Assembly: GCA_964528875.1 (NCBI GenBank)
Contig: CAZGUI010000004.1
Span: 3,627 to 67,626, forward strand
DNA length: 64,000 nt
Reading direction: 5' to 3'
DNA from: an uncultured Bacteroides sp.
Lineage (GTDB): Bacteria > Bacteroidota > Bacteroidia > Bacteroidales > Bacteroidaceae
The first letter of the stretch is position 1; each line of letters begins with the position of its first letter. Shown here in pieces: positions 4,493 through 44,517 of the stretch. A program made the translations under genes and the position numbers. The notes under the pieces are model-generated. The model was not told where the DNA came from. It did not search any database and saw only the letters and a program-made list of their open reading frames with translations.

Positions 4493-5824
4493 TTATTCTA
4501 TAACAATGGGATATCCTCTATAAAAGTCTAGTATTTTGGCTCGAAATAAGAAATCATACTTTGCTTGAACTTGTTCAGACTGACTACTGACATATTTCAA
4601 TTTAGCTTCATTAAACTCAACTACTGTTGATCGACCTACATTGTATTTTTCTTGTGCGTAATGATATGCTTCTTTAGCGGCTTCCATAGCTCTTTCCGTA
4701 TAGTCATATTTAATTTGAGAAGCAATGGCACTTTGATGTGCCTGTTGTATTTCTTTATAAAACCCTTGCTTAACGTAATCTAATTCTAGATTTCTATTTA
4801 AGATCATCAGACGTGCTTCTTTTACACGGTTACGTGTTTGAAATCGATTAAATATGGGAATATTCAAATTGAAACTAAGTACTTCACTAGAGTTATCTCT
4901 TAACTGACGTTTGAATATAGTGTTTTTAGCTCCCGTAATTCGCCCATAACCGGTACCATAGCTCATACCAAAGCTGAGAGTTGGCCAAAAAGCTGACTGT
5001 GCAACTTTTAATCTGCTTTTCTCGCCCTCCAATCTAAAAGAAGCTTCTTTAATATGGGGTTTAATTTGAATAGCTTGTCTGTATATTTCTTCCGGGGGAA
5101 GGATACTACTTATATTATCAGAAATGACATCATCAATATGAGGTTCTTGTATATCAAAGCTATTTAGATCACGTACATTTAAAGCTTGAGCTAAGTCTAA
5201 AAGAGAAGCATCCAGATTATTTTTTGCGTTTTGTCTGTTTAACTCATCATTCGCTAATTGAGCTTTGATGTCATAGAGCTGAGCTAAGGGTACTTTATCT
5301 GCCTCATAAAGTAATCTGGTTTTTTCAACCTGTTCTTTAGTTTGTTCAACTTGTTCATCAGAAATTAGTATGAGCTCTTTTTTAAACAGAACATCAAGAA
5401 ATAAAGTAGTAACTTGAATTTCTAAATTTTCTTTTGCCTTATTAAGTCCTTCAACAGCTGCTTGCAAATCCAGTTTACTCGCTTTTATTTCATTGGGTAT
5501 TCTGAGACCTGTAAATAAGGGCACAGAAGAACGAAGACTAAAGTTACTAGACAAGGAGTTTCTACTTTCAGAGATTTGAGTAGCTACATTGGTAGATCTA
5601 CCAAAACTGAAGTTCTGTCCAACACCTGCGCTTAAATCAGGTAGACGACTGTATTGATTTGTCTTAACAGCTAAATCAGATTGGGCTACAGACACTTCCT
5701 GTTGTTTCAAACTAATATTGTTTTCTATAGCATATTCCACACACTGACGAAGGGTCCACTTGGATTGTGCAACCATGGAAAAAGATACAAATAATGCAGT
5801 GGCGAAAAGTAGTTTACGCTTCAT
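4493..5824 (-). CDS. TolC-family outer membrane efflux protein
   Basis: 443 aa with a signal peptide. Two-fold repeated coiled-coil/beta architecture, and the conserved start SKWTLRQCVEYAIENNISLKQ typical of Bacteroidota TolC-like OMPs. Last gene of the exporter operon. Confidence 0.9.
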   Translation of the reverse strand: MKRKLLFATALFVSFSMVAQSKWTLRQCVEYAIENNISLKQQEVSVAQSDLAVKTNQYSRLPDLSAGVGQNFSFGRSTNVATQISESRNSLSSNFSLRSSVPLFTGLRIPNEIKASKLDLQAAVEGLNKAKENLEIQVTTLFLDVLFKKELILISDEQVEQTKEQVEKTRLLYEADKVPLAQLYDIKAQLANDELNRQNAKNNLDASLLDLAQALNVRDLNSFDIQEPHIDDVISDNISSILPPEEIYRQAIQIKPHIKEASFRLEGEKSRLKVAQSAFWPTLSFGMSYGTGYGRITGAKNTIFKRQLRDNSSEVLSFNLNIPIFNRFQTRNRVKEARLMILNRNLELDYVKQGFYKEIQQAHQSAIASQIKYDYTERAMEAAKEAYHYAQEKYNVGRSTVVEFNEAKLKYVSSQSEQVQAKYDFLFRAKILDFYRGYPIVIE

Positions 5825-5843: not shown

Positions 5844-6968
5844 TTATTTTTGAGCGTGTAATGCTTTCTTTTCAAAAATCTCATTACCTCGAATTTTCTC
5901 ATCTAAACTTAATCCCTCTTTTACTTCCACTTTGATGCCATCGGACAAACCAATGCGTATGGAACGTTTTTCAAACTCTTGTTTCTCTTCACTTGTCGAT
6001 TTCAACACATAAACGAAAGTTGAGTCACCCACAAATTCTATAGAGTTTTCGGGTACATGAAGAACATCTTCAACACGTGCCAGCACAATTTCAGCATTGG
6101 CACTATAGCCTGCACGAATTTTAATGGAATCAGGAATATTTGCGGCAGCCTTAATCTCAAATAAAATAGCACCACTCTCCTCTTTTCCTTTGGGTGAAAT
6201 GTATTCCAGTTCAGCATCGAAACTGTAGTTCTCTAATGCACCTATTGAGAGTTTAATAGGCATACCGGCATGAACACGTCCTACTTCTGTTTCATCCAAG
6301 TCTCCAATAAAAATCATATCTGTCATATCAGCAACCACAGCAATAGTAGTTCCTTCGTTAAATGTGTTCGATTGAATCACCGAATTACCCACTTTTACCG
6401 GAACATCTAAAATCATACCCGTAATGGTAGAACGAATTTGTGTATTACTGTATTGAGCTGTTTTAGAAGACATACCTGTACGCACAATATCAAAATTATC
6501 CTTAGCATTTTCCAATTCTTCCAATGCTTTTTTATAGTCAGCCTCCGATTGATCCATCTCTTCACGGGCAATCACTCCTTTTTCGAATAGCATTTTTTGA
6601 CGTTCGTACTCTGCTTGAATGCGGTTTAAATTGATTTCAGCCACATTTACGCGAGACTCAGAGCTATTTAGATCAATCATTTCAGGTACTACTTTTACGG
6701 TAGCAATGATATCACCCTCATTCACAAAATCTCCGGCTTCTTTCAGTACAGAAGAGATAATACCGGGAATCTGAGGTTTAATAAGTACCTCATCACGAGG
6801 AGCAACTTCACCTGTGGCAACAGAAGTATTTTCAATGTTTCCCTGTTCCACTTGTACTATTTCAAAAAATGTTTGTTGGGGCTTTGATTTACTCCAAAGC
6901 CAAACAAAAGTGCCTATAAACACTGCTCCAATAACAGTAAACACTAGAATTTTAAGAATCTTTCTCAT
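5844..6968 (-). CDS. Efflux periplasmic adaptor (HlyD/MacA-type membrane fusion protein)
   Basis: N-terminal TM anchor, lipoyl-like motifs (GEVAPRDEVLIKPQIPGIIS; GDIIATV), a coiled-coil hairpin and a beta-barrel region (ITGMILDVPVKVGNSV). Confidence 0.9.
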   Translation of the reverse strand: MRKILKILVFTVIGAVFIGTFVWLWSKSKPQQTFFEIVQVEQGNIENTSVATGEVAPRDEVLIKPQIPGIISSVLKEAGDFVNEGDIIATVKVVPEMIDLNSSESRVNVAEINLNRIQAEYERQKMLFEKGVIAREEMDQSEADYKKALEELENAKDNFDIVRTGMSSKTAQYSNTQIRSTITGMILDVPVKVGNSVIQSNTFNEGTTIAVVADMTDMIFIGDLDETEVGRVHAGMPIKLSIGALENYSFDAELEYISPKGKEESGAILFEIKAAANIPDSIKIRAGYSANAEIVLARVEDVLHVPENSIEFVGDSTFVYVLKSTSEEKQEFEKRSIRIGLSDGIKVEVKEGLSLDEKIRGNEIFEKKALHAQK

Positions 6969-7026
6969 TATTGTATCTTGTTTTATGTTTTCTATTTTCT
7001 TTATTTATCTGAATCGTTCTTTATTT

Positions 7027-8292
7027 CTATTCATCTCGAATAGCATCTATAGCTTTAATTTTCAAAGCTCTGTAAGCAGGCATTAATCCTGAGGCAATTC
7101 CAGAAATCACTAAAATGAGAATTGCAGTAGTAGCCACATTAAATGAAACAAATGGTTCAACAAAAAAGCTAAAGTCCTCACCTCCTCCAGTTGACATTGA
7201 CATCAGTGAACTTACTCCTTCCAGAACCAAAATACCAGCTATGAAACCAATGATTCCCGAAAGTGCAGTTAGTACAAAACTCTCACTTACAATTTGCATC
7301 ACTATGGTATAAGGTTTGGCTCCTATGGCCCTTCTTACCCCTATTTCTCGGGTTCGTTCTCTTACAGTAACCATCATAATATTACTTATGCCTATTATAC
7401 CTGATAGCAAAGCACCAATCCCCACAATCCATATCAAAAAGTCTACTCCTAAAAATAAATTGCTAAATAGCTTAAACTGTTTCTCGATATTAAAAGAGTG
7501 TAATGCTTTTGTATCTTCGGGCGCTATGTGGTTTGCCATTTTCAGAATCGTAGAGACTTGATCTTCAACCACAGAAGCTGCTATGCCTGGTTTTGCAGTA
7601 CAAGCCAAGAAGTGTACTATTTCTCCTTGATTAAAGGTTAGCTGCATAGTGCGAAAAGGAATAAAAATACTCTCTTCAGGTCTTCCTCCAATAGATGCTT
7701 TAGATTTGGGGCTAATAACCCCTATCACTTGAAAATAAATTCCATTTAATCGAATAACCTGACCGATTGGGTCTTCCCCCACACTGAAAAGAGTTTCGTA
7801 TACTGTTTCTCCTATAACACAGACCTTTCGGGTATCTTTATTATCCAGCTGATTAATTAAACGTCCTTGTAACAGATGCATCTGCTCAATTTGAAAGTGT
7901 TCACCATAAACTCCACGATAACCATACGATCCGGATTTCATTCCACGAACCACATTTTTATCTCCACCTCCACCAAACAGCATAGGAGAAATTAAATCTA
8001 CTGTGTTACCACGTTCTCTAATCAAATCCACATCTTTATTTGTAATGTTCCACCACCTGCCTTTACGAAAACCTTTATAAGCCACACTGGTGCGTCCGGA
8101 GCTAAAGAAACAAGAATTTGAAGCAAATCCTTCAAAGTTTTGTAACATACCTCCTTGAAAAGCATTGCCCATACCTATCAGAATGATAAGCATAAATAAT
8201 CCCCAAAACACACCAAAACCAGTCAAGAAACTTCTCAACTTATTTCGGGTAATGGTAGCCCATATTTCACTCCAGCTATCTAAATCAAACAT
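7027..8292 (-). CDS. ABC transporter permease, FtsX/MacB type
   Basis: MacB_PCD-type periplasmic domain between TM1 and TM2. C-terminal FtsX motifs VRERTREIGVRRAIGA and PAYRALKIKAIDAIRDE. Confidence 0.9.
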   Translation of the reverse strand: MFDLDSWSEIWATITRNKLRSFLTGFGVFWGLFMLIILIGMGNAFQGGMLQNFEGFASNSCFFSSGRTSVAYKGFRKGRWWNITNKDVDLIRERGNTVDLISPMLFGGGGDKNVVRGMKSGSYGYRGVYGEHFQIEQMHLLQGRLINQLDNKDTRKVCVIGETVYETLFSVGEDPIGQVIRLNGIYFQVIGVISPKSKASIGGRPEESIFIPFRTMQLTFNQGEIVHFLACTAKPGIAASVVEDQVSTILKMANHIAPEDTKALHSFNIEKQFKLFSNLFLGVDFLIWIVGIGALLSGIIGISNIMMVTVRERTREIGVRRAIGAKPYTIVMQIVSESFVLTALSGIIGFIAGILVLEGVSSLMSMSTGGGEDFSFFVEPFVSFNVATTAILILVISGIASGLMPAYRALKIKAIDAIRDE

Positions 8293-8303
8293 CTCTTTCT
8301 TTA

Positions 8304-9545
8304 TTATTCTGCTCTCATCGCTTCAATTGGACTTACTCGGGTTGCCTGTATAGCAGGAATTAATCCTGCTATTACGCCGCAAACAATTAAAAACAACGTT
8401 GCTAATACTACTGTTAATAAATCTACTGTTGGGTCTTTAAACATCGTTGTTCCATCCGAAGGCATATTATCTACTAAGGTAGCTACTCCTTCGGTTATGG
8501 CTACTCCAATTAATATCCCCACATAACCAGCCAATGTGGTAATCATAATAGACTCTAATATGATCAGTTTTAATATGGAAATAGGTTTGGCTCCCAAAGC
8601 TTTACGGATGCCTATTTCACGTGTACGTTCTTTTACTGTTATCAACATGATATTCCCAACACCTACTACTCCAGCCATTAAAGAGGCTATTCCAATAACA
8701 ATAACCACGAGTGTTATGGCATAGAACATACCTTGCATTTGAAGGGAGTCTTTAGCGGTGTTCCACACATACAAGGCAGACAGGTCAGTAGGTTCAAAAT
8801 ATTGTATTTTACTAATAGATTTACGTAAGTCTTTAATAAATAAATCGTTTTTTTCTTCTGTGTTCAAGTTAAGAACCGTAAAATCTATCCGATGAAAGCC
8901 ATAACCAAAACTGTATAACGTCTGAGCTGTTGTGAAGGGAATGTATGCCGGAGGATTACTAGAACCTTCTTCATCTTCGTAAACACCAACTATCTGATAA
9001 GTCAGATTATCTGCAATCACAAACTTTCCCATAGGGTTCTCTTCTGGAAAAAGCACTTTAGAAATATCATTATTGATTACAATGATTTTTCGTCGTTGTT
9101 CAATATCTATTTTATTGATAAAACGTCCTTTAGACATCTTAATATCAAAAATCTTAGAAGCGTCGGGCGAGACTCCATTCAGACGCCAAGAACCGTATTG
9201 ATTACCATAAGATAGCGTAACCGTTTTTCCAACCTGAGCCGATATATATTCCACTTCAGGCACTTGATTAGCAATAAAATTGTAAACCTTATTATCGAAT
9301 TTAATTCTGCGTACAGCAGGCATTCCTTTATAAGGCATGGATGTCCATCCGGGGAAAATAGTTACCGTGTTTTGAGCACGACCCGAAAAGTTGGATTGTA
9401 CTCCATTTTTAAGACCATTTCCTGCTCCTAACAGAATAATGAGCATTAATATACCCCAAGCCACAGCAACACCCGTAAGGAAGGTCCGTGCTTTATTCTT
9501 CTTTATAGTAGATGCTATTTCTCTAAACCAATCAAAGTCGAACAT
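8304..9545 (-). CDS. ABC transporter permease, FtsX/MacB type (second paralogue)
   Basis: Same architecture as the neighbouring permease: [16 protein letters not shown] and [17 protein letters not shown]. Confidence 0.9.
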
Positions 9546-10246
9546 TTGTCAATTGCTTCTTGAGGTGAATGTTGATGAACATCAATGGAACCTATGATAC
9601 CATCTTTTATATGTATAACTCGATCGGTAATATCTGCAACAGATTGCTCGTGAGTAACAATAATCATTGTTATTTTGCTCTCCATATTGATTTCTCTCAA
9701 TAGTCGCATCACTTCACGGGAAGTTTGGCTATCTAATGCTCCTGTGGGTTCATCAGCCAATATAACTTGAGGTTGAGAGATTAGAGCTCTAGCAATGGCC
9801 ACACGTTGTTTTTGTCCGCCTGATAGTTCATTGGGCATGTGATGAGCGTGTGATTTCAACCCCATTTGATCCAACAACTTTAATGCTAACTCATTTCTTT
9901 TCTTTCTTTTTACCCCTTGGTAAAACAAAGGAAGAGCTACATTTTCCATTGCATTTTTAAATGAAATTAGGTTGAACGACTGAAATACAAACCCTATTTT
10001 TTTATTTCTAATGCTTGCGGCTTCATTCTCCGACTGCTTACCTATTAATATCCCATCCAAATAGTAAGAACCGGAGTCGTAGCTATCTAATAAGCCCAAC
10101 ACATTCAACAGTGTGGATTTTCCTGATCCAGATGCACCCATAATGGACACAAATTCTCCTTTTTCAATAGATAAGTTAATTCCTTTTAATACGTGCAAGG
10201 GTGATGCACCAAAGTAAGTCTTATTTAAATCTCTTATTTCAATCAC
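9515..10246 (-). CDS. ABC transporter ATP-binding protein (MacB/LolD-type)
   Basis: Walker [10 protein letters not shown], signature [15 protein letters not shown], Walker [16 protein letters not shown] start. Overlaps the next gene by 31 nt. Confidence 0.92.
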
Positions 10247-10740: not shown

Positions 10741-10817
10741 GGTCCTAGACCGAAGGCCTGTCGGTCTAGGACTGAAGGGTGCTCGGTCTAGGACCGAGAG
10801 GTCTTGGGTCTTAGACC
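10741..10817 (+). repeat. GC-rich phased-palindrome element, copy 1
   Basis: Four motifs exactly 22 bp apart: GGTCCTAGACC (10741), GGTCTAGGACT (10763), GGTCTAGGACC (10785), GGTCTTAGACC (10807). The core 10738-10798 is identical to 30151-30211. Confidence 0.95.
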
Positions 10818-30153: not shown

Positions 30154-30230
30154 GGTCCTAGACCGAAGGCCTGTCGGTCTAGGACTGAAGGGTGCTCGGT
30201 CTAGGACCGAGCAACGTAGGGTCTAAGACC
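30154..30230 (+). repeat. GC-rich phased-palindrome element, copy 2
   Basis: Motifs at 30154, 30176, 30198 and 30220 (GGTCCTAGACC, GGTCTAGGACT, GGTCTAGGACC, GGTCTAAGACC). The core is identical to copy 1. Confidence 0.95.
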
Positions 30231-30313: not shown

Positions 30314-31399
30314 CTAATTTTCATTTTCAACCTTTGAAAATTCCGAGAATTCACAGCCGAACTTATCTACCATGTAATTATCTAATTCATCGGCTTTTTC
30401 TGACAATTTAATGATGTGTTGCTGAATCTCTTCACCTAAGTCGTTTGTAATGTCTGCTAAATGAATGCGATAGGCAATATAAACCTCTCTACCATCTACC
30501 CCAAGCTTATAAGGAGAGAACTCGTTGCTAAGTACAAAACGTAATACGGCTTCAATGTTTTTCTTAGGTAAAAGTACTATGGGAGAAACAGCAAATAAAT
30601 AATCATGCTGATAAACAAAAAGACGTATCTCTGAACTACCTTTATGAAAACGCCAAACCTCGTTACCGGCTCGTGCTGAAATGGGATTAATACCCATTTT
30701 CTCCAATGCTTCTTCACAAAAATATGAGATAGGAGAAATTTCTCGTTCTTCAAATATTTCCTCAATTAGTTTTTCTCCACATGAAGGACAATATTCAGTT
30801 GGCTCACTTATAAATTCTTCACAGCTACCACATTGAACATTATACGCTGCACGATCAATATCAGCAATATTTTCCAATAATTGTTTTAAGGTATCTACTT
30901 GAATACCAAACCCCATATTGTCAGCATCAGTAAATTTACTCACTGTAATAGCAATTAATTCCCCTGCTTTATTAAAAATAGGACCTCCTGAATTACCGGG
31001 ATTAACCGCAGCATCAGTTTGTACATAAAAACGACCATCAATCAGTTGTTTAGGAGCTGAAACAGATCCTTCGGTCATTGTAAAAGGCATACCAAAAGGA
31101 TATCCTGCTACATACACCTTATGGCCAATATTTAAGTTTGCACTATCTGATAAAAAAAGAGAAGGTAAATGAGAAAAATCACCGTCAGCCACAATCAAAG
31201 CCAAATCGGTTTCAGGATTAACCAATATTACTTTACCTAAATAAACATTGCGATCCTTATCGTGAATAGCTACATTGTGAAACCCTTCAACTACATGATA
31301 GTTTGTAACAAACAAATCATAATCTTTCAAATAAAAGCAAGTACCAGAACCTGCTGCATGGGTAACTTTGTATACTAAAGAATATATAGATTCATTCAT
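30314..31399 (-). CDS. Trypsin-like (S1) serine protease fused to a zinc ribbon and a YbjN-like C-terminal module
   Basis: Catalytic triad contexts TNYHVVEG (His), ETDLALIV (Asp) and GNSGGPIF (Ser). CGSCEEF...CPSCGEKL zinc ribbon. The C-terminal region VWRFHKGSSEIRLFV...LLPKKNIEAVLRFVL...YRIHLADI resembles YbjN/T3SS-chaperone-like domains. Confidence 0.8.
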   Translation of the reverse strand: MNESIYSLVYKVTHAAGSGTCFYLKDYDLFVTNYHVVEGFHNVAIHDKDRNVYLGKVILVNPETDLALIVADGDFSHLPSLFLSDSANLNIGHKVYVAGYPFGMPFTMTEGSVSAPKQLIDGRFYVQTDAAVNPGNSGGPIFNKAGELIAITVSKFTDADNMGFGIQVDTLKQLLENIADIDRAAYNVQCGSCEEFISEPTEYCPSCGEKLIEEIFEEREISPISYFCEEALEKMGINPISARAGNEVWRFHKGSSEIRLFVYQHDYLFAVSPIVLLPKKNIEAVLRFVLSNEFSPYKLGVDGREVYIAYRIHLADITNDLGEEIQQHIIKLSEKADELDNYMVDKFGCEFSEFSKVENEN

Positions 31400-31432
31400 A
31401 GTTCTATGTTTTTAATTATTGAATAATAGATT

Positions 31433-32737
31433 TTAAAATCCCTGTTGCATTTGTGCTACCAGGCGCATATATTCTTCCATATCTCCTTTAGCTAATGCTT
31501 CCATCATTTGCTTTTGCAACGCCTCTATTTCTGCCTGTATTTCTCCTGTTCCTTCTTGGACTGCAGTCATTGCTTCTTCTACAGCTTGGGTGTAATCATC
31601 CAAAAAACCAAAGTCATCAGAGTCTTCATCCAGGTTGTCATCCATAATCCGATTCATCATTTTATATAATATCTCGGCAGCTTCATCCCACGTTTTTCCT
31701 GATGCTTCTTTCAATGTGGCAGATACAAATTGGTTAATTGTTTCCATTACATCTGTATAGTAATACATTTCATAAAACTTATACAGAATTCTTAAGGCAG
31801 CTCCTTCTGTATTTCCCGATTGTATGGCTTGAGTTACATTTTCATAGGTATCTTCAAAGTTCGACTGAATATTACCCAATGATGAAGACATTTTTGTGGA
31901 AATTAGAGTATCTACAAAATATAAATCTTTGGCTAACTCTTCTTTAGGCATTGCAGCTAATTGTTCCAACACCTTAGCTCCTTTAGATACCACTTCCTGA
32001 GTAGTTAAATCTCTATTCATATCCGAAATAGCTTTATCTATCTCATTCAAAAGAGCTCCCTGAGGTGAAGCAAAGTACATTATTTGATAAAAAGCTACAT
32101 CCAGAATGTTCCAAGAATAGCCATAAGCTCTCTCTTGATTATATTCAGCAATGGCTTCGATTGTATACTTGCATATTTCTTGAATAGAGTTATATACATT
32201 ATCAATTACTTCTTGCGAATAGGGTTTAATGATAGGTTGATAGATACGCTGTGCATTAAATTCTGATTCAAACTCATCATCGTACTTATCACCTATTTCG
32301 CAAAATTCTCTCAATACATCATAAAGCTTATGAGGGTGTGTTTGTGAAATATGACAGTCGTATTTCATTCTCAAAATGTCATCATTGAGCTGAAAATTCA
32401 CTAATGTAGTTTCGTTTATATTTAAACCGGCCACCTGTCTTAACATAGGAAGACCACCCTTTTCCGGTAGTTTCATAAAGTCGGCATTCATTATTAATCG
32501 ATTGTCTTTTAATAGTAAATCGATTATAATTGAACCGTGAGGAATATGAAACTCTGTTCCCTCTTCATTACCATATTCTTTTCTGGCATTTGGGTTTAAG
32601 CTATCCAAGAAAGTATGAAAAGCATTCAAATACTGCTCTTCCTGATACAAATCGATGGCCGATTTGAAGATCTCAAAATTAAATAAGCTCTCGGTTGTTC
32701 CTAAAACCGGCTCATAATAATTAATTGCATTTTTCAT
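31433..32737 (-). CDS. Hypothetical soluble protein with an N-terminal YbjN-like module and an acidic coiled-coil tail
   Basis: TEFHIPHGSIIIDLLL...MKLPEKGGLPMLRQVAGLN...MKYDCHISQTHPHKLYDVLREFCEIGDKYDDEF aligns by eye with the C-terminal module of the adjacent protease. The tail is EIQAEIEALQKQMMEALAKGDMEEYMRLVAQMQQGF. Confidence 0.7.
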   Translation of the reverse strand: MKNAINYYEPVLGTTESLFNFEIFKSAIDLYQEEQYLNAFHTFLDSLNPNARKEYGNEEGTEFHIPHGSIIIDLLLKDNRLIMNADFMKLPEKGGLPMLRQVAGLNINETTLVNFQLNDDILRMKYDCHISQTHPHKLYDVLREFCEIGDKYDDEFESEFNAQRIYQPIIKPYSQEVIDNVYNSIQEICKYTIEAIAEYNQERAYGYSWNILDVAFYQIMYFASPQGALLNEIDKAISDMNRDLTTQEVVSKGAKVLEQLAAMPKEELAKDLYFVDTLISTKMSSSLGNIQSNFEDTYENVTQAIQSGNTEGAALRILYKFYEMYYYTDVMETINQFVSATLKEASGKTWDEAAEILYKMMNRIMDDNLDEDSDDFGFLDDYTQAVEEAMTAVQEGTGEIQAEIEALQKQMMEALAKGDMEEYMRLVAQMQQGF

Positions 32738-32824
32738 TTACTATTCGTTTATAAGATTATACATATTGTAATTTTCTAATGAGATAATAGGTAGTAAGAA
32801 GTATTTATTCTTTTGCTCAAGAGA

Positions 32825-33379
32825 TTAAATACTTTTTATGATTTTATAAAACTCTGTATATTCCGGATCAGTAACTACTTTGATCACACTCGCTCCCCTA
32901 AAATCGGATGAAGAATAATATTGCATCAATTGTAAATAGAAAGTCTTGCCAACTTCATCTTCATGAATATAAAGTTGTAATGGACGGTTATCAGCAGAAG
33001 CTTCATAAGATAACCCCTCCCAGTCTTTTTTATCAAACAACTCTTTAACTCTTCTGGCATCTTCTCCATTAAGATCACCTCCTTGTTCAGGATAGGCAAA
33101 CTTTTTAACGGGTAATTGTTTTATTTCTCCGTTGCTTTTTTTATTATACCAACTACTACCTTCGGTATAAAATGAAAAGCCACAATATAAAAGTCCAATT
33201 ATGGCTATCATTCGAATTAATAAATTACCAATGGGAATGAGTGAGGGATAGATAATGAGTAGCACACAAAGAGCTATCAATATCATATACATAATCCTTT
33301 TGGATTGATTTTTTCTTTTCTCAAAGTCTGAATTATTTTCGTAAAATTCATACAAATTATTGGGGTACTGTGAATTCAT
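32825..33379 (-). CDS. Hypothetical membrane protein (two TM helices plus a soluble C-terminal domain)
   Basis: TM segments IMYMILIALCVLLIIYPSLIPIG and LLIRMIAIIGLLYCGFSFY. No known motif. Confidence 0.65.
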   Translation of the reverse strand: MNSQYPNNLYEFYENNSDFEKRKNQSKRIMYMILIALCVLLIIYPSLIPIGNLLIRMIAIIGLLYCGFSFYTEGSSWYNKKSNGEIKQLPVKKFAYPEQGGDLNGEDARRVKELFDKKDWEGLSYEASADNRPLQLYIHEDEVGKTFYLQLMQYYSSSDFRGASVIKVVTDPEYTEFYKIIKSI

Positions 33380-33421
33380 GTTATGTTCAAATTTATTATA
33401 ACTACTATTTTATGATATATA

Positions 33422-34261
33422 CTACCAACTTAGTTTAACCCAAGGACTGTTCGGATTATTAAGCAAGTTGTGAGCAATTGAAGCAATCTCTTCCACTCCA
33501 CTCCAAGCAGCTCTACCAATGACATAACTTTTCGCAAAATCATTCCATGAAGTAAAGTGTTTTTGAGCTTTATCATATGCTTCATTAATAAACTCCCAGG
33601 CCTCTTCTTCTGTGAGATATTTGGCATCGTAACAAATGCGAGCCAGATAGCTTAATCGACCATAATCCCATCCCAAGACACCATAGAACTGAATATCTTC
33701 TTTAGAGCTTATAACATCCTCATTGATTAACTCTTCATAAGAATTTTGTAAGTTACTAACTTGAGCTAGAGCTTTCTCTATATCTTCTTTATAAGTTTCT
33801 TTTTCTTTCTCTGTAAGATTCCCATGAGGGTTTAATCCCGATAAAATAATTTTCTTTTGTTCATTTATACTAGCGTGTGAAAAAGCTTTATATACAGAAG
33901 GAAAATAATAATTGAACCCTTTATCTTTCAAATAGTTCAAAGTATCTAGAGCAGTCTCTTTATTATAAATGTTCCACCAGTCTTGGGCAGTCATACGAAT
34001 TATTTCATCATCCAAACCTGTGGTTAAGGAGTTTATATAAGCTTCTTGCATTTCACTGTAAATGGCACCTATAGATATTTTCTTATACTCTTCACTGCTT
34101 AGTGTAGAAGAGGGATTGAATGTAAGTGGTACAAAGTCATCATCTACATCCTTTGGATTATTTTGATTCTTTATAAAAGGAATCAGCTTAAAAAAGATGA
34201 AATAAACAGCAAGGACTGAGAGTAATAATAGTAAAAAAGAGTTTTCTGATATAAATTCCAT
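33422..34261 (-). CDS. DUF1266-like protein with an N-terminal TM anchor
   Basis: The track start (34270) is a TTG; the first ATG is at 34261 (MEFISENSFLLLLLSVLAVYFIFF). YGVLGWDYGRLSYLARICYDAKYLTEEEAWEFINEAY resembles the conserved DUF1266 core. Assignment from memory. Confidence 0.6.
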   Translation of the reverse strand: MEFISENSFLLLLLSVLAVYFIFFKLIPFIKNQNNPKDVDDDFVPLTFNPSSTLSSEEYKKISIGAIYSEMQEAYINSLTTGLDDEIIRMTAQDWWNIYNKETALDTLNYLKDKGFNYYFPSVYKAFSHASINEQKKIILSGLNPHGNLTEKEKETYKEDIEKALAQVSNLQNSYEELINEDVISSKEDIQFYGVLGWDYGRLSYLARICYDAKYLTEEEAWEFINEAYDKAQKHFTSWNDFAKSYVIGRAAWSGVEEIASIAHNLLNNPNSPWVKLSW

Positions 34262-34294
34262 AAGTTTCAATGTATTAGAACTATTAGTTTTTAT

Positions 34295-35359
34295 TTATAA
34301 ATTCAAATCGTTGAGTGTTTCTCTAACTGTTGTAAAATTATCGTACAGATCAGTTAACACCTCATTGCTTGAGGAGGATACCTTTCCTAAGGTCAAAAAA
34401 CCTTCGGGCATTGAAACAGCAAAATAGAACTGATTGCCGTTAAATGAGAGCATTATATCTCTGTTGTATTTCTTTTTTAACTCTGTTATTCTACTCATCA
34501 TTGCTGGAGTTAGAACATAACGTGCAGTAATTTCATCACTGGCATATACTGCGAAATAACGTTCGAACTCTATATCTTCTAACTGAACCAACTTATTGTT
34601 ATTTACATTCTTAAGAGATTGAATGTTTTTTGCTAAATAATCAAGATGTTTTTCTAAGTGGTCCGGTAAAATAACTACCGAACCTTTTATTTCCTTTTCT
34701 AATTTAGCCGAAGCAAACATTCCTCTAAAACTGCCGGTAATATTTTCTATTCGTGATGAAAATACGCCTTTGAATGTGGTCTTAAAAATTAGAAAAACAC
34801 TACCTAAAGTAGTGTTCGATAACCAATGTTCACTTTTTGATCCACTAATAAGTACATCTTGAAACATTATGTTGCGCTTTCCACTATCAAAAATAATTTT
34901 CCCAAACGACTGACCACAAGTATAATCCCGATGTGCACCACCGAAAAAATGACTTTTCATTATCTCCGACACTGAAAGGATTGAAGGGGTCAAACTCAAT
35001 CGTGCATCGGGAAATAGTTGATGAATAATTTTTTGGATAGCACTCTGTTCTGCTGCTGAAAATTTCTGCTGAAAGTAACTTAAACCATAACCTCCAAGAG
35101 TTATTAATACAAACAAAGGGAGCAGAACAAGTATGGTTTTATATCTTTCCCAAAAAGATGGATTCGGGTCTAATGTATGTAAGAAAGAGGTATCACCACC
35201 GGAAAATATAAATGCCTGCATTCCAATAAAGACAATAAAATAAAGCATTGCTCCACCATAACATAAAAAACGAGATATCTGAATTATTTCTCTATGTCTC
35301 TCAGCCTTTTTTAATACTTGAGATAACTCTTTCTGTAACTGCCCTATCTTTACATTCAT
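34295..35359 (-). CDS. Hypothetical membrane protein, tentatively DUF3137-like (a frequent LemA neighbour)
   Basis: Two TM regions (FLCYGGAMLYFIVFIGMQAFIF and ILVLLPLFVLITLGGYGLSYF) followed by a roughly 240-aa soluble domain. Sits directly downstream of lemA. Confidence 0.55.
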   Translation of the reverse strand: MNVKIGQLQKELSQVLKKAERHREIIQISRFLCYGGAMLYFIVFIGMQAFIFSGGDTSFLHTLDPNPSFWERYKTILVLLPLFVLITLGGYGLSYFQQKFSAAEQSAIQKIIHQLFPDARLSLTPSILSVSEIMKSHFFGGAHRDYTCGQSFGKIIFDSGKRNIMFQDVLISGSKSEHWLSNTTLGSVFLIFKTTFKGVFSSRIENITGSFRGMFASAKLEKEIKGSVVILPDHLEKHLDYLAKNIQSLKNVNNNKLVQLEDIEFERYFAVYASDEITARYVLTPAMMSRITELKKKYNRDIMLSFNGNQFYFAVSMPEGFLTLGKVSSSSNEVLTDLYDNFTTVRETLNDLNL

Positions 35360-35371
35360 AAGTATCTTTTA

Positions 35372-35932
35372 TTATTCAAATAAGGCTTTAACATCAACAT
35401 TAGCTTTCTCAACTTCAGGAATCGTTATTAAGTCATACAGCTGATAGCTCTTTAATGAAGCCACTAAAGAAGAAGGAAACATCTGAACATAATTATTAAA
35501 GTCCACCGCTGCAGCATTAAATGTGCGTCGAGCAGCTTGTAGTTGATATTCCATCTCTTCAATACTTTTTTCAAGATGAATAAACTGTTTATCAGCCTTT
35601 AGTTCAGGATAGTTTTCTACTGCTACTTTGATATCAGCAAGCTTACCGGAAAGTTCTGTTCCTATTTTTATTTGCTCTTGTTCATCTTTTGATTCCTGTA
35701 TTAATGCTCGTAACTCAGTAATTCTAGTTAACGTAGTATTTTCATATCCCATATAATTTTGCACTGCAGCAACTAAATTGGGTATCATATCATTCCGTTG
35801 TTTAAGCATTACAGAGATACTACTTTCTGTTTGTTTTACTTTATTGTTCTTAGCTATAAACTTATTGTAAGTAACTACAAACCAGAGTATCAAAATGATC
35901 AATAAAAGCAAAAAGGTTAAAGGATAAAACAT
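35372..35932 (-). CDS. lemA: LemA family protein
   Basis: N-terminal TM helix, then YNKFIAKNNKVKQTESSISVMLKQRNDMIPNLV, YPELKADKQF and RRTFNAAAVDFNNYVQMFPSSLVA, the canonical LemA signature. Confidence 0.9.
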   Translation of the reverse strand: MFYPLTFLLLLIILILWFVVTYNKFIAKNNKVKQTESSISVMLKQRNDMIPNLVAAVQNYMGYENTTLTRITELRALIQESKDEQEQIKIGTELSGKLADIKVAVENYPELKADKQFIHLEKSIEEMEYQLQAARRTFNAAAVDFNNYVQMFPSSLVASLKSYQLYDLITIPEVEKANVDVKALFE

Positions 35933-35966
35933 ATTCTTATTGTTAGCATATTCTATATATTCTTAG

Positions 35967-36611
35967 TTACTGAGGATCTAAATTGCCATCCAAATCTGCT
36001 TTGAATGTATACTCATCATAATAGTTATGACTGCTGTCCGATCCGGTATGTCTTTCTATTGTAAAGCGATGTTCTATTTTCTCCGGATTATTATGAAAGA
36101 TGATACTATATGTTCCTATGCCATCAGCAGATAAACTATCGGCAGCTAACATAGCAATTGCAGAATTTACGTTAGCTGCAATTTTCTCACAACCTAATTT
36201 CGTTACATTTTTTATCCCCTTATAAGGTCTATGATTCACTGAGGTATAGTAAAAAGCTGTTGTATCCTCAAAAGCTTTATTCTCCTTTAAGTCTATAGTA
36301 ATCAGACTTCTTTTTTTAGTGTTTTCAGAGTTAACAAAGAGAATCTCAGCCAAGCCTCTAGAGAATGAATAGGTAGAAACATCGCTATCAGCTTTTCTGA
36401 AAAATATTTCAAGAATTTCCATTTCAGGAGTAACATTTTTCTTGATAAGTTCTTCCAAATCCTGAATATCTTTTTCTTTTGTGAAATTTCGTCCATCATT
36501 AAACACACTAACAATGTCTTTACATCCTATTTGAACAAGAATTAAACCCAATAAAAGGATACCAGTCTTTAACCTGGAGTTTCTTTTTAGTATATTTTCT
36601 TTTATATTCAT
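35967..36611 (-). CDS. Hypothetical lipoprotein
   Basis: Signal peptide plus lipobox LILVQIGCKD. 214-aa ORF. Confidence 0.65.
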   Translation of the reverse strand: MNIKENILKRNSRLKTGILLLGLILVQIGCKDIVSVFNDGRNFTKEKDIQDLEELIKKNVTPEMEILEIFFRKADSDVSTYSFSRGLAEILFVNSENTKKRSLITIDLKENKAFEDTTAFYYTSVNHRPYKGIKNVTKLGCEKIAANVNSAIAMLAADSLSADGIGTYSIIFHNNPEKIEHRFTIERHTGSDSSHNYYDEYTFKADLDGNLDPQ

Positions 36612-36617
36612 TTCAAT

Positions 36618-37091
36618 TTATTTAGCGAATTTATCCATGAAAAAATCATAAAATGGTTGAAACTCTTGAGACTGTGAAACTCCTATAGTATAACCTCCAT
36701 TAGTTGAACCTGTTGGATCAATAAAAAACTCTAAGGGTTGTTCACCAAAAGCAGGGTGATCGATAGTGAATCTTTTACTTTTATCACTCAAAAATGCAGA
36801 GTTACATTCACTCCTCTTACAAATAATAGGAGGCTCAAACGATGAAAGAGTATTGTCTGTTGAAATAATTACAATTTCCGGATCATCACCATCTTTATAG
36901 CCCAAAATATAGTTGTAGTAAGTGGTTACATCTTTAAATAGTTTCTTCTCATAAACAATATTTATCACTGATAATGTTACATAACTTTCTCCATTCTCTA
37001 AAAGAGAATTAAATTTGTTGCGAATCTCTTGTTTTTTACTTTCTGATTTCGCTCCTCCCTCTAACCCTAATAATCGACTTAAAAATCCCAT
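36618..37091 (-). CDS. Hypothetical soluble protein with an amphipathic N-terminus
   Basis: 157-aa ORF starting MGFLSRLLGLEGG. Beta-rich, no TM helix. Only a 6-nt gap to the next gene. Confidence 0.6.
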   Translation of the reverse strand: MGFLSRLLGLEGGAKSESKKQEIRNKFNSLLENGESYVTLSVINIVYEKKLFKDVTTYYNYILGYKDGDDPEIVIISTDNTLSSFEPPIICKRSECNSAFLSDKSKRFTIDHPAFGEQPLEFFIDPTGSTNGGYTIGVSQSQEFQPFYDFFMDKFAK

Positions 37092-37142
37092 AATACGTTG
37101 TTTTATTTATTAAATAATTAATATCTGACACGTAAAAATGAA

Positions 37143-37328
37143 TCACATAAAATAAAAAATGACGCTACAAATCACGAAGAGAATGCCAGCTAATAAAATG
37201 GCTATATTGCGTGCTTTCGAATTATTTTCAGAATAAATCCATTTCCATTTTAAGAAAAACCCTAAAATAATAACTACGCCAACAAGCATTAGTACTGCGC
37301 ATCTCTCAAGTGTTCCTAAGTTTTCCAT
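37143..37328 (-). CDS. Small two-TM membrane protein, first ORF of the cluster
   Basis: 61 aa with an ATG start. TM helices CAVLMLVGVVIILGFFL and IAILLAGILFVICSVIFYF. Confidence 0.5.
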   Translation of the reverse strand: MENLGTLERCAVLMLVGVVIILGFFLKWKWIYSENNSKARNIAILLAGILFVICSVIFYFM

Positions 37329-37406: not shown

Positions 37407-37906
37407 GAAATCATTTAATTCTATATAAATCACTAATTATCTAGTACAAAAGAGAGCTTCAGAAAGGAAATGGGGCTAATATGTTTACAGAATATTGTCT
37501 GATTGTTCTATTATAACTTGAAGGGTGATGTTTACAAGCTCCCTTCTCTGTCTTTTTTAATGCTTGATTCAGATCTTCTATTCTCTAATCTGGATCAAGA
37601 GATTCGGACACGTCTATGCTTTTTTCTAATTTTCGGAGAAACATTAAATGTGGAATTTTCCATTATGGATTCAAACCTTTGCTTGGGATAATACAAAGCA
37701 GAATCCATCTGATTTAATGGATAGTAATTACTGACAATATCATTCAGTGCATCAATCGCAATTATAGTGTCGGTAACATAAGTCAAAGATTGAAGAGCCC
37801 CCTCTAATATTTTATTATTCTCATTGTTTGCAGAATAAATCAGAAGCTAATTGGAGTTAAAGTTCAAAGTCTAATAAAACCTTTTATAGATGAGATTTCT
37901 TAATCT

Positions 37907-38497
37907 TTAATCATTGGTAAAAGTTATTTTTCTTCTAATTCTACTTAATGTTTCAGGTGTTACATTAATAAAAGAAGCTATGTCTTTTAATGTGGCTACA
38001 TTTAAAATGTCCGGATGCTTTTTAATTAATTTCTGATAGCGTTGCTCAGCTGTATCACAATACATGGACAATAAGCGATTATAAATATCAATTAAAAATG
38101 TTCGGGAAATTTCTTTAATGAGTGTGTTTTCTATCTCTTGAATGTCAGTATATGACACAGAATATATGACACTATCCACTATGGTCTGGGCATCGGTAAT
38201 TGCTAATGAATCAAAGAAATTATCAGAATAATTTTCAAGAAAAGAGGGAAGATCAGCAATAAAATCATCACCAAAACTAAACCCCACCGTTTTCATTTCT
38301 CCTTTGGATGTATAGTTGATGTATTTAACGCCTCCTGTTTCTATATATCCAAAGATATTCTTAGAACTTCCTTTCCTGATGATATATTCTCCTTTCTTGA
38401 ATCTTTTTTTTGTTCCTTTATCAATACAAAGTTGTTTAAGCAGATTTATATTTGCTATCTCCAGGTATTTATTAAATTTTAGTTCTTGTTGTTCCAT
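37907..38497 (-). CDS. Crp/Fnr family transcriptional regulator
   Basis: cNMP-binding-like N-terminal domain. C-terminal HTH ATLKDIASFINVTPETLSRIRRKI carries the E-x-x-S-R recognition motif. No FNR-type N-terminal Cys cluster. Confidence 0.85.
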   Translation of the reverse strand: MEQQELKFNKYLEIANINLLKQLCIDKGTKKRFKKGEYIIRKGSSKNIFGYIETGGVKYINYTSKGEMKTVGFSFGDDFIADLPSFLENYSDNFFDSLAITDAQTIVDSVIYSVSYTDIQEIENTLIKEISRTFLIDIYNRLLSMYCDTAEQRYQKLIKKHPDILNVATLKDIASFINVTPETLSRIRRKITFTND

Positions 38498-44440: not shown

Positions 44441-44517
44441 GGTCCTAGACCGAGCACCCTTCAGTCCTAGACCGACAGCCCTTTGGTCTAGGACCGACAC
44501 ACTCTCGGTCTATACCC
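44441..44517 (-). repeat. GC-rich phased-palindrome element, copy 3 (inverted orientation)
   Basis: Motifs at 44441, 44463, 44485 and 44507 (GGTCCTAGACC, AGTCCTAGACC, GGTCTAGGACC, GGTCTATACCC). Its reverse complement matches the copy 1 core with 3 mismatches. Confidence 0.9.

Follow-up and report, generated by a model that had tools for sequence, protein, structure and literature searches.

Organization of the locus

We examined a nine-gene array, G1 to G9, from an uncultured Bacteroides sp. It lies in a window of 64,000 nucleotides (nt), by which we mean the whole stretch of DNA analysed (GenBank assembly GCA_964528875.1, contig CAZGUI010000004.1, positions 3,627 to 67,626 of the forward strand). 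A preliminary description had presented the array as nine co-oriented open reading frames, 6 to 87 nt apart, that encode mostly uncharacterized envelope-associated proteins and a protease. All nine were found on the minus strand at the same coordinates, and the gaps from G1 to G9 measured 51, 6, 34, 12, 24, 42, 87 and 33 nt. The widest gap in the array, between G7 and G8, marks the boundary between two groups of genes that we term module A (G4 and G5) and module B (G8 and G9). Operon-like packing of nine genes is by itself not unusual. Gene callers placed the start of G6 at an ATG three codons further in, giving a protein of 279 amino acids (aa).

A hydropathy scan showed two transmembrane (TM) segments in G1, one in G4, two in G5, one in G6 and two in G7, and the hydrophobic N-terminus of G3 terminated in a cysteine (LVQIGC), as in lipoproteins. 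The scan detected no TM segment in G2, G8 or G9. The earlier count of six proteins with a TM helix or lipobox was therefore reproduced, and the portrayal of the families as uncharacterized and of most products as membrane-anchored with predicted cytoplasmic domains was supported. The domain calls mostly held, with the amendment that the LemA, DUF3137 and DUF1266 proteins are full Pfam members, beyond the '-like' label some had received. A chaperone-like protein and a protease with a chaperone tag were both present. Coordinates are given in Table 1.

Table 1. Features of the array and its surroundings; positions are counted from the first letter of the window.
Feature	Position	Strand	Description
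G1	37143-37328	-	61 aa, two TM segments, lineage-specific
G2	36618-37091	-	157 aa, soluble, acidic, N-terminus MGFLSRLLGL, lineage-specific
G3	35967-36611	-	214 aa, putative lipoprotein
G4	35372-35932	-	186 aa, LemA, N-terminal TM segment, module A
G5	34295-35359	-	354 aa, DUF3137, two TM segments, module A
G6	33422-34270	-	282 aa, TM-anchored DUF1266, recurrent module A accessory
G7	32825-33379	-	184 aa, two TM segments, conserved C-terminal domain, recurrent module A accessory
G8	31433-32737	-	434 aa, acidic, cytoplasmic, module B
G8 TY-chaperone-fold domain	32243-32680	-	residues ~20-165; AlphaFold2, Foldseek, profile search, hhalign
G9	30314-31399	-	361 aa, S1C/HtrA-type protease with zinc ribbon and TY-chaperone-fold domain, module B
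G9 protease domain	30860-31375	-	residues ~9-180; catalytic H35, D65, S137
G9 zinc ribbon	30770-30838	-	C190-x2-C193 ... C204-x2-C207
G9 C-terminal TY-chaperone-fold domain	30350-30742	-	residues ~220-350; model and hhalign
TTGATTTACATCAA	37393-37406		perfect TTGAT-N4-ATCAA palindrome (Crp/Fnr-type consensus), centred ~71 nt before the start codon of G1
Second palindrome, TTGAT-N6-ATCAA	37372-37387		directly downstream of the first, read from sequence; kept in L003
Crp/Fnr-family regulator gene	37907-38497	-	upstream neighbour; cNMP_binding, 29 bits (cut-off 27.5), E=1e-6
GC-rich array of GGTCCTAGACC palindromes	30154-30230		22-nt spacing, after the G9 stop codon

The G8-G9 pair

G9 matched the Pfam family Trypsin_2 at 99.9 bits (E=2.8e-28). 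The best Foldseek matches of its protease domain were HtrA1, DegS, DegQ, Deg1 and MucD, at 30-39% identity and E values of about 1e-10 to 1e-12, and the search also recovered the anti-sigma S1C domain of RsgI9. Among 53 diverse homologues the catalytic His, Asp and Ser were kept in 49, 47 and 47 sequences, respectively. G9 scored far below the cut-offs of the NCBIfam models for DegP, DegQ, DegS and HtrA (126.3 bits at best vs 416.2), and no PDZ domain was found in it by Pfam at E<=0.1 or in the alignment of its C-terminal domain. The hydropathy scan revealed neither a signal peptide nor a hydrophobic N-terminal segment, the catalytic His being reached already at residue 35; G9, lacking a signal peptide or anchor, is therefore predicted to be cytoplasmic.

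The protease domain is followed by a zinc ribbon, for which Pfam returned weak Zn-ribbon matches. Cysteines C190, C193 and C207 were invariant in all 53 homologues; C204 was left out of this count, and the CP[SC]CG motif that holds it was located in 21 of 21 sampled orthologues. The presence of a four-cysteine ribbon suggests a reducing compartment.

G8 fell short of the threshold for Pfam TY-Chap1 (PF22551; 23.1 bits vs 27), a family that many G8 orthologues do carry in precomputed annotation. In an AlphaFold2 model of G8 (pLDDT 80.5), the N-terminal domain showed an a-bbb-a-bb-a order of secondary structure. Foldseek matched this domain, with probability 1.0 and a target-normalised TM-score (TMt) of ~0.5-0.69, to 2plg (Tll0839), ExsC, SycN/YscB, SicP, SigE, YbjN and AmyR (entries include 3kxy, 1xkp, 1jyo and 6vu7), and the profile search with G8 also touched Tll0839. 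Aravind and colleagues reportedly use the name 'TY chaperones' for the class-I chaperones of type III secretion systems (T3SS) and the YbjN family (ExsC, SycN-YscB, SicP, CesT, YbjN/AmyR and Tll0839). As modelled, the G8 N-terminal domain has this T3SS class-I chaperone/YbjN fold, and the YbjN-like module proposed earlier for G8 was confirmed at the level of fold. Beyond it, residues 175-366 make up a helical domain for which Foldseek returned no structural match, and a disordered acidic linker (residues 371-398) leads to conserved C-terminal helices.

The C-terminus of G9 had no Pfam match. Foldseek results for full-length G9 were dominated by HtrA structures, and the fold of this domain was therefore deduced from the order of its secondary structure and from hhalign. 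The G9 model (pLDDT 64.7) showed the a-bbb-a-bb-a order at residues 223-347, and hhalign aligned the domain with the G8 N-terminal domain over 107 columns with a probability of 97.2% (E=4.6e-11; E=0.0074 when shallower alignments were compared). By this profile comparison, the C-terminal domain of G9 is a paralogue of the G8 TY domain. The description of G9 as a protease joined to a zinc ribbon and a YbjN-like module was thus borne out, the last by homology to G8 though not by Pfam.

Breadth of the G9 family

An exhaustive HMMER search of 1.84 billion proteins with the zinc ribbon and TY region of G9 returned only 182 representative clusters. Nearly all were 355-370 aa long and kept the order protease, zinc ribbon, TY domain down to about 23% identity. 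In a word-indexed homologue search with the G9 C-terminus, most of the sequences retrieved were truncated gene calls, and none showed a new architecture. At five distant loci with readable flanks, a G8 homologue lay directly upstream of the protease gene in four; the G9 C-terminal domain was only 23-36% identical in these four, and hhalign E values for the distant G8 homologues were 1.9e-49, 1.6e-19, 2.3e-16 and 9.9e-12.

Several variants were seen. Long C-terminal extensions of TPR repeats were present on the homologues P0200, P0205 (L084 8001-10613), P0216 and P0262. P0240 carried an N-terminal membrane anchor and had no G8 homologue upstream. In two divergent proteins, P0227 (L083 1818-3383) and P0246, a full G8-like protein was fused, independently, to the G9 TY domain; both fusions lacked protease and zinc ribbon, and no protease gene adjoined the fusion in L083. 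The G8 homologue upstream of P0205 lacked the acidic tail and C-terminal helices. In P0250 (L089), tryptophan occupied conserved glycine positions, for example NPWNSWW for NPGNSGG. This pattern would fit a source organism that reads UGA as glycine, and the G9 family may reach Gracilibacteria-like lineages.

Conservation across genomes

G8 served as the anchor for a survey of other genomes, its full-length homologues being 41-54% identical in many Bacteroidales. The sample comprised 80 species-representative loci, with isolates of Bacteroides, Alistipes, Mediterranea, Odoribacter, Butyricimonas, Rikenella, Millionella and Gabonibacter among them, and was scored by tblastn and family hidden Markov models with a neighbour distance of 10 kb. 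G8 and G9 were adjacent and co-oriented in 79 of the 80 genomes, and the contig of the remaining one terminated inside G8. LemA and DUF3137 were both found near the pair in 21 genomes (22 with the inclusion of a locus at a contig end that shows DUF3137 alone), G7 homologues in six, DUF1266 in three, and G1 and G2 in one. This single locus, L003, is the closest relative of the window (G9 94% identical); G3 is deleted from it, and neither the Crp-like gene nor Rnf adjoins its cluster. The idea of nine genes conserved as one unit was therefore not upheld, the order being common only to L003, which itself lacks G3. Where G8-G9 stood alone, the gene before it was often divergent or lay across a gap of >200 nt, and the pair therefore appears to form an autonomous bicistron.

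The converse test was anchored on DUF3137 in metagenomes, where 80 loci collapsed to 31 clusters at 90% identity. LemA was immediately upstream of DUF3137 wherever the contig allowed, and G8-G9 followed DUF3137 in only 6 of the 31 clusters. The 13 clusters that lacked G8-G9 despite 3 kb or more of sequence downstream included the nearest relatives of the window DUF3137 (56-61% identity) and carried instead DUF1266, G7 homologues and members of three unannotated recurrent families, f23 (236 aa), f15 (two TM segments, 151 aa) and f7 (a lipoprotein, ~214 aa). Families f7 and f15 also flanked G8-G9 in Alistipes loci without LemA. Juxtaposition of the two modules recurred in three G9 clades in varied arrangements: direct, with DUF1266, G7 plus the family f93, or an f7 lipoprotein in between, or divergent at a distance of 3 kb (L013).

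The survey thus showed two obligate pairs, LemA with DUF3137 and G8 with G9, which draw on a common pool of accessory membrane proteins; the window holds the most elaborate version of their juxtaposition, and G1 to G3 are lineage-specific additions. The cluster is modular. Several of the families recurred together elsewhere, and the association is therefore a real one.

An alternative is that the modules are functionally unrelated, their adjacency being an inherited chance arrangement and the array a mere run of co-oriented genes. Each module was often found without the other, and the widest gap falls exactly at their boundary; natural excision of G8-G9, described below, leaves LemA-DUF3137 intact. 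We nevertheless consider this explanation unlikely. The linkage was seen again in each of three divergent clades of G9, spread over five or more groups of family rank, and it outlasted rearrangement, as seen in the varied insertions, the divergent arrangement in L013 and the occurrence of f7 and f15 on either side of G8-G9. Families f15 and f7 were, moreover, common to loci with only module A and loci with only module B.

Module A and the accessory genes

G4 matched Pfam LemA (PF04011) at 135.4 bits (cut-off 26.2; E=1.7e-39), with a TM segment at residues 1-28. G5 matched DUF3137 (PF11335) at 110.8 bits (cut-off 26.1; E=6.1e-32) and G6 matched DUF1266 (PF06889) at 138.2 bits (cut-off 27; E=4.2e-40). 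The soluble domains of LemA, DUF3137 (C-terminal), DUF1266 and G7 are predicted to face the cytoplasm. G4 resembles other members of the LemA family, which includes the magnetosome protein MamQ, in its full Pfam membership and N-terminal TM segment. It is, however, not a MamQ equivalog (59 bits vs a cut-off of 250 in NCBIfam), and its partner is DUF3137. Other LemA genes pair with those for TPM, GIDE or DUF2207 proteins. G4 also matched the phage family phrog_1383 ('virion structural protein') with E=1.7e-14.

DUF1266 adjoined LemA-DUF3137 both with and without G8-G9. G7 homologues adjoined LemA-DUF3137 in L013, L057, L059, L095-L098, L110 and L111, and lay several kb away in the same locus in L022 and L047. 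No Pfam match above threshold was obtained for G1, G2, G3 or G7. Nor did Pfam match f23, f15, f7, f93, a 223-aa protein or the regulator-like family f6reg described below. G7 resembled no known family in Pfam or PDB-profile searches, and G2 was unmatched across Pfam, NCBIfam, PHROGs and PADLOC as well as the PDB sequences; profile searches of G5, G6, G7 and G2 against the PDB gave chance-level matches only. A match of G1 to Imm17 was below the Pfam threshold (21.9 bits vs 25) and was set aside as compositional in a hydrophobic protein with two TM segments.

Comparison of the accessory families by hhalign (G2/f23, G7/f15, G7/f93 and others) brought out no relationships among them, and G2 in particular had no profile similarity to f23, G7 or f15. 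The exception was a weak, colinear match of ~180 columns between G3 and the f7 lipoproteins (P=6e-4 to 0.025). G3 may be distantly related to f7, the lipoprotein found alongside G8-G9 in Alistipes.

Natural loss, mobility and defence signals

Two human-gut contigs from B. cellulosilyticus-like strains (L113 and L134, compared with L118 and L011) were 96-98% identical in nucleotide sequence to B. cellulosilyticus DSM 14838 and lacked exactly the ~2.4-kb G8-G9 segment (L118 ~6919-9331), with LemA-DUF3137 and the downstream genes retained. From this clean natural deletion, G8-G9 behaves as a unit.

G9 identity mostly followed genus, at 79-99% among Bacteroides species, 88% in Alistipes and 75-91% in the Odoribacter/Butyricimonas/Gabonibacter group. 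Between Bacteroides and Alistipes it reached a striking 80%, and across families it ranged from 58 to 68%. The Alistipes proteins were nearer to those of Bacteroides than to those of Rikenella and Millionella (65-66%; L013/L014 vs L057/L059), which suggests old horizontal transfer or paralogue sorting of G9 within Bacteroidales.

These patterns bear on the earlier proposal of a conflict or abortive-infection system. In such a system the membrane proteins would sense phage or toxin and a chaperone-held protease would be released onto host or invader proteins. Partner-held proteases are common among defence effectors. The accessory genes around the core are variable, G8-G9 is polymorphic in presence among close strains, and the split of the Rikenellaceae in the G9 identity matrix hints at horizontal transfer. 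The G9 protease domain matched the RT-Protease_XI and PDC-M35A models of PADLOC-DB v2, and LemA has phage homologues (phrog_1383). The PADLOC matches were, however, confined to this generic domain, apart from two weak partial matches of G5 (E ~0.005-0.007); PADLOC gave no significant match for G8 or the other non-G9 proteins, and PHROGs returned only generic protease-domain matches and the LemA-like phage family. G8 had no match among 72,556 plasmids or 50,697 phage records.

The genomic setting also spoke against a defence role. The array sits in a 210-kb metagenome contig between housekeeping genes, with the Rnf operon and the Crp-like gene on one side and galE, an ispE-like gene and murB on the other, and its GC content equals that of its flanks. 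No integrase or defence-island neighbours were seen at the loci inspected, and the identities of G9 were far above those of arms-race genes. Nothing specific therefore favoured a conflict role, which we regard as very unlikely.

Proposed mechanism

The reading we prefer, with a probability of about 0.4, is that the locus represents a lineage-specific joining of two independently conserved modules into one operon-like array that serves membrane-proximal, chaperone-gated proteolysis or quality control. Cleavage by HtrA-type proteases is limited to segments that are accessible and extended, and a peptide-binding domain turns these enzymes on, and T3SS chaperones of the TY fold form homo- or heterodimers that grip an extended segment of their client. 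G9 would be an ATP-independent serine protease of the HtrA type working in the cytoplasm, with the zinc ribbon and a peptide-binding TY domain standing in for PDZ domains. G8 in turn has a TY domain paralogous to that of G9, followed by a helical scaffold and an acidic tail. A TY domain in the place of PDZ, a paralogous TY domain in the obligate partner and the precedent of T3SS dimers led us to propose that the TY domains of G8 and G9 pair, like heterodimeric T3SS chaperones. Such a pair could bind a stretch of polypeptide that is extended or unfolded, and so gate or feed the protease, in analogy to the peptide binding by PDZ domains that activates DegS and DegP. HtrA proteases are allosterically activated through peptide binding to their PDZ domains, and the characterized bacterial members are envelope-located or secreted (PMC11642142).

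LemA and DUF3137, here together with DUF1266 and G7, may tether G8-G9 to the membrane, serve it as sensors, or be its clients. Membrane-anchored neighbours with predicted cytoplasmic domains and the context of DUF1266 in E. coli (see below) point to membrane-proximal quality control or regulated proteolysis as the likely role of the combined locus. The function offered earlier, an envelope-stress or quality-control module or else a conflict system, accordingly fits better in its first half and worse in its second. Pfam matched none of the nine proteins to Psp-type parts (PspA/Vipp1, PspC, LiaI/F or Toastrack).

Several observations weigh against the preferred reading. G8-G9 was accompanied by none of the other families within 10 kb in 46 of the 80 genomes, and dedicated membrane partners are therefore either not required or encoded elsewhere. 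Similarly, of the 19 dereplicated DUF3137 clusters whose downstream sequence extended for 3 kb or more, 13 had no G8-G9 after them. The cytoplasmic orientation of the LemA, DUF3137, DUF1266 and G7 domains was predicted by the positive-inside rule, and the G9 model is of moderate confidence. Natural deletion implies that G8-G9 is dispensable, in some natural conditions at least, and hence not essential, and the Rikenellaceae are divided between two G9 clades.

A broader claim is more tentative, and we hold it as doubtful: that G8-G9 constitutes a cytoplasmic protease system, widely conserved but so far unrecognised, in which a heterodimeric, T3SS-chaperone-like platform replaces the PDZ sensor. 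The system would keep watch over membrane proteins, LemA, DUF3137 and DUF1266 among them, through their cytosolic domains.

Comparison with known systems

G9 shares with the HtrA/Deg S1C proteases (DegP, DegQ, DegS, HtrA1 and Deg1) a chymotrypsin-fold domain with a His-Asp-Ser triad, and like them it would couple an ATP-independent type of enzyme to a putative peptide-binding regulatory module. It differs in carrying a zinc ribbon and a TY-chaperone-fold domain instead of PDZ, and in having an obligate upstream partner gene. Unlike the envelope-located or secreted bacterial HtrAs, it has no signal peptide or anchor and is predicted to be cytoplasmic. What is new here lies in the regulatory module and the partner of this HtrA-type protease.

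The a-bbb-a-bb-a fold relates G8 and G9 to the TY chaperones, and the occurrence of paralogous TY domains in the products of neighbouring genes recalls heterodimeric SycN-YscB. In contrast to T3SS chaperones, however, no T3SS or effector genes were found in the neighbourhood within the window or at related loci, and the hosts are Bacteroidales. The free-standing TY chaperones are ~130 aa long, whereas the TY domains of G8 and G9 are fused to a helical domain and a protease, respectively. TY-Chap1 was first described in systems centred on ADP-ribosylglycohydrolase (PMC9503650); no ADP-ribosylglycohydrolase is present here.

A further parallel, the other recorded setting of DUF1266, was found in E. 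coli K-12 (L171, 676711-681663), where ybeR and ybeU, both encoding DUF1266 proteins, overlap djlB and djlC by 4 nt beside hscC. A Sel1-repeat gene flanks each pair, ybeR-djlB and ybeU-djlC. The tail-anchored J-proteins there are believed to serve membrane proteins as chaperones of their cytosolic domains (PMC8215388). As in our array, DUF1266 is coupled there to a chaperone machine thought to be active at the cytoplasmic face of the membrane. The machines differ, with a TY-fold chaperone and a protease in the window and Hsp70 with J-domain proteins in E. coli, and the window DUF1266 protein is itself TM-anchored.

In the literature searched, which covered DUF3137, DUF1266, LemA, TY-Chap/YbjN and PDZ-less HtrA, we met with no account of what these genes do as a set, nor with any description of the G8-G9 pair or of the LemA-DUF3137 association. 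To our knowledge, no molecular function has been established for LemA or DUF1266. Large families without known mechanism (LemA, DUF3137, DUF1266 and YbjN-like) here converge on a predicted cytoplasmic, PDZ-less protease of the HtrA type, and the G8-G9 pair is conserved across the dominant human-gut Bacteroidales. If gating of the proposed kind occurs, peptide-activated, ATP-independent HtrA proteolysis would no longer be confined to the envelope but would also operate at the cytoplasmic membrane face, and proteins of the T3SS-chaperone fold would gain a role outside secretion. The more tentative surveillance system, if real, would offer a first functional handle on three large families, LemA, DUF3137 and DUF1266, and would add a branch to what is known of membrane proteostasis in gut Bacteroidales. 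Experimental material is at hand, as B. cellulosilyticus DSM 14838 carries LemA-DUF3137-G8-G9 and natural G8-G9 deletion strains exist.

Upstream region, regulators and repeats

The preliminary description placed an FNR-type operator before the array and a Crp/Fnr regulator gene at its flank. Both were present. The perfect TTGAT-N4-ATCAA palindrome, TTGATTTACATCAA, was one of two such matches in the window (0.24 expected). It carried one mismatch in L003 and was not found at any homologous locus beyond it. The neighbouring Crp-family protein contained just two cysteines, at about residues 24 and 146. E. coli FNR needs four cysteines for its iron-sulfur centre, and the neighbour is therefore not an FNR-type iron-sulfur sensor. 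With the site unconserved and the regulator lacking the FNR cysteine cluster, a redox or FNR link is at best lineage-specific.

Regulator genes were also recorded at other loci. A family of ~560-615 aa, f6reg, has a TM segment in addition to helical (TPR) repeats, ends in an HTH-like region and was found near the module in 15 of the 80 genomes (including L007, L025, L027, L028, L043, L047, L059, L066, L074, L076 and L013). Together with the Crp-family regulator that adjoins the cluster in the window, this raises the idea that G8-G9 is a dedicated switch that cleaves one factor, such as a membrane-spanning transcription regulator or an anti-sigma-like protein. Site-1 proteolysis of the DegS type is a precedent (PMC11642142), and the retrieval of the RsgI9 anti-sigma domain by Foldseek agrees with it. 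Against these points, regulator neighbours vary in family and position and most loci have none, the FNR-type site is not conserved, and the 46 loci with G8-G9 alone show no conserved candidate substrate beside the pair. A dedicated switch is therefore quite unlikely, and the general quality-control reading is preferred.

No Rfam match was found in the cluster or in the 578-nt upstream spacer. Sigma-70 promoter sites were at background level (39 vs 39.6 expected), and the Bacteroides -7 motif TAnnTTTG was not enriched (98 vs 95 expected) and had no match at the putative promoter. A class-II position of the FNR-type site was considered and dropped. Nine terminator-like sites were counted against 3.2 expected; these were not taken as evidence for an internal terminator.

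The other perfect TTGAT-N4-ATCAA palindrome in the window lies at 9572-9585. By eye, part of the long non-coding spacer upstream of G1 (~37500-37700) resembles L003 at ~4560-4700, although the upstream genes differ; a gene in decay or a leader under conservation might account for the similarity. A copy of a GC-rich repeat had been noted after the cluster, and it is one of three arrays of GGTCCTAGACC in the window (10741-10817, 30154-30230 and 44441-44495; 13 motif matches vs 0.61 expected). The element is REP-like and intergenic, and the copy after the G9 stop codon possibly marks the end of the transcript.

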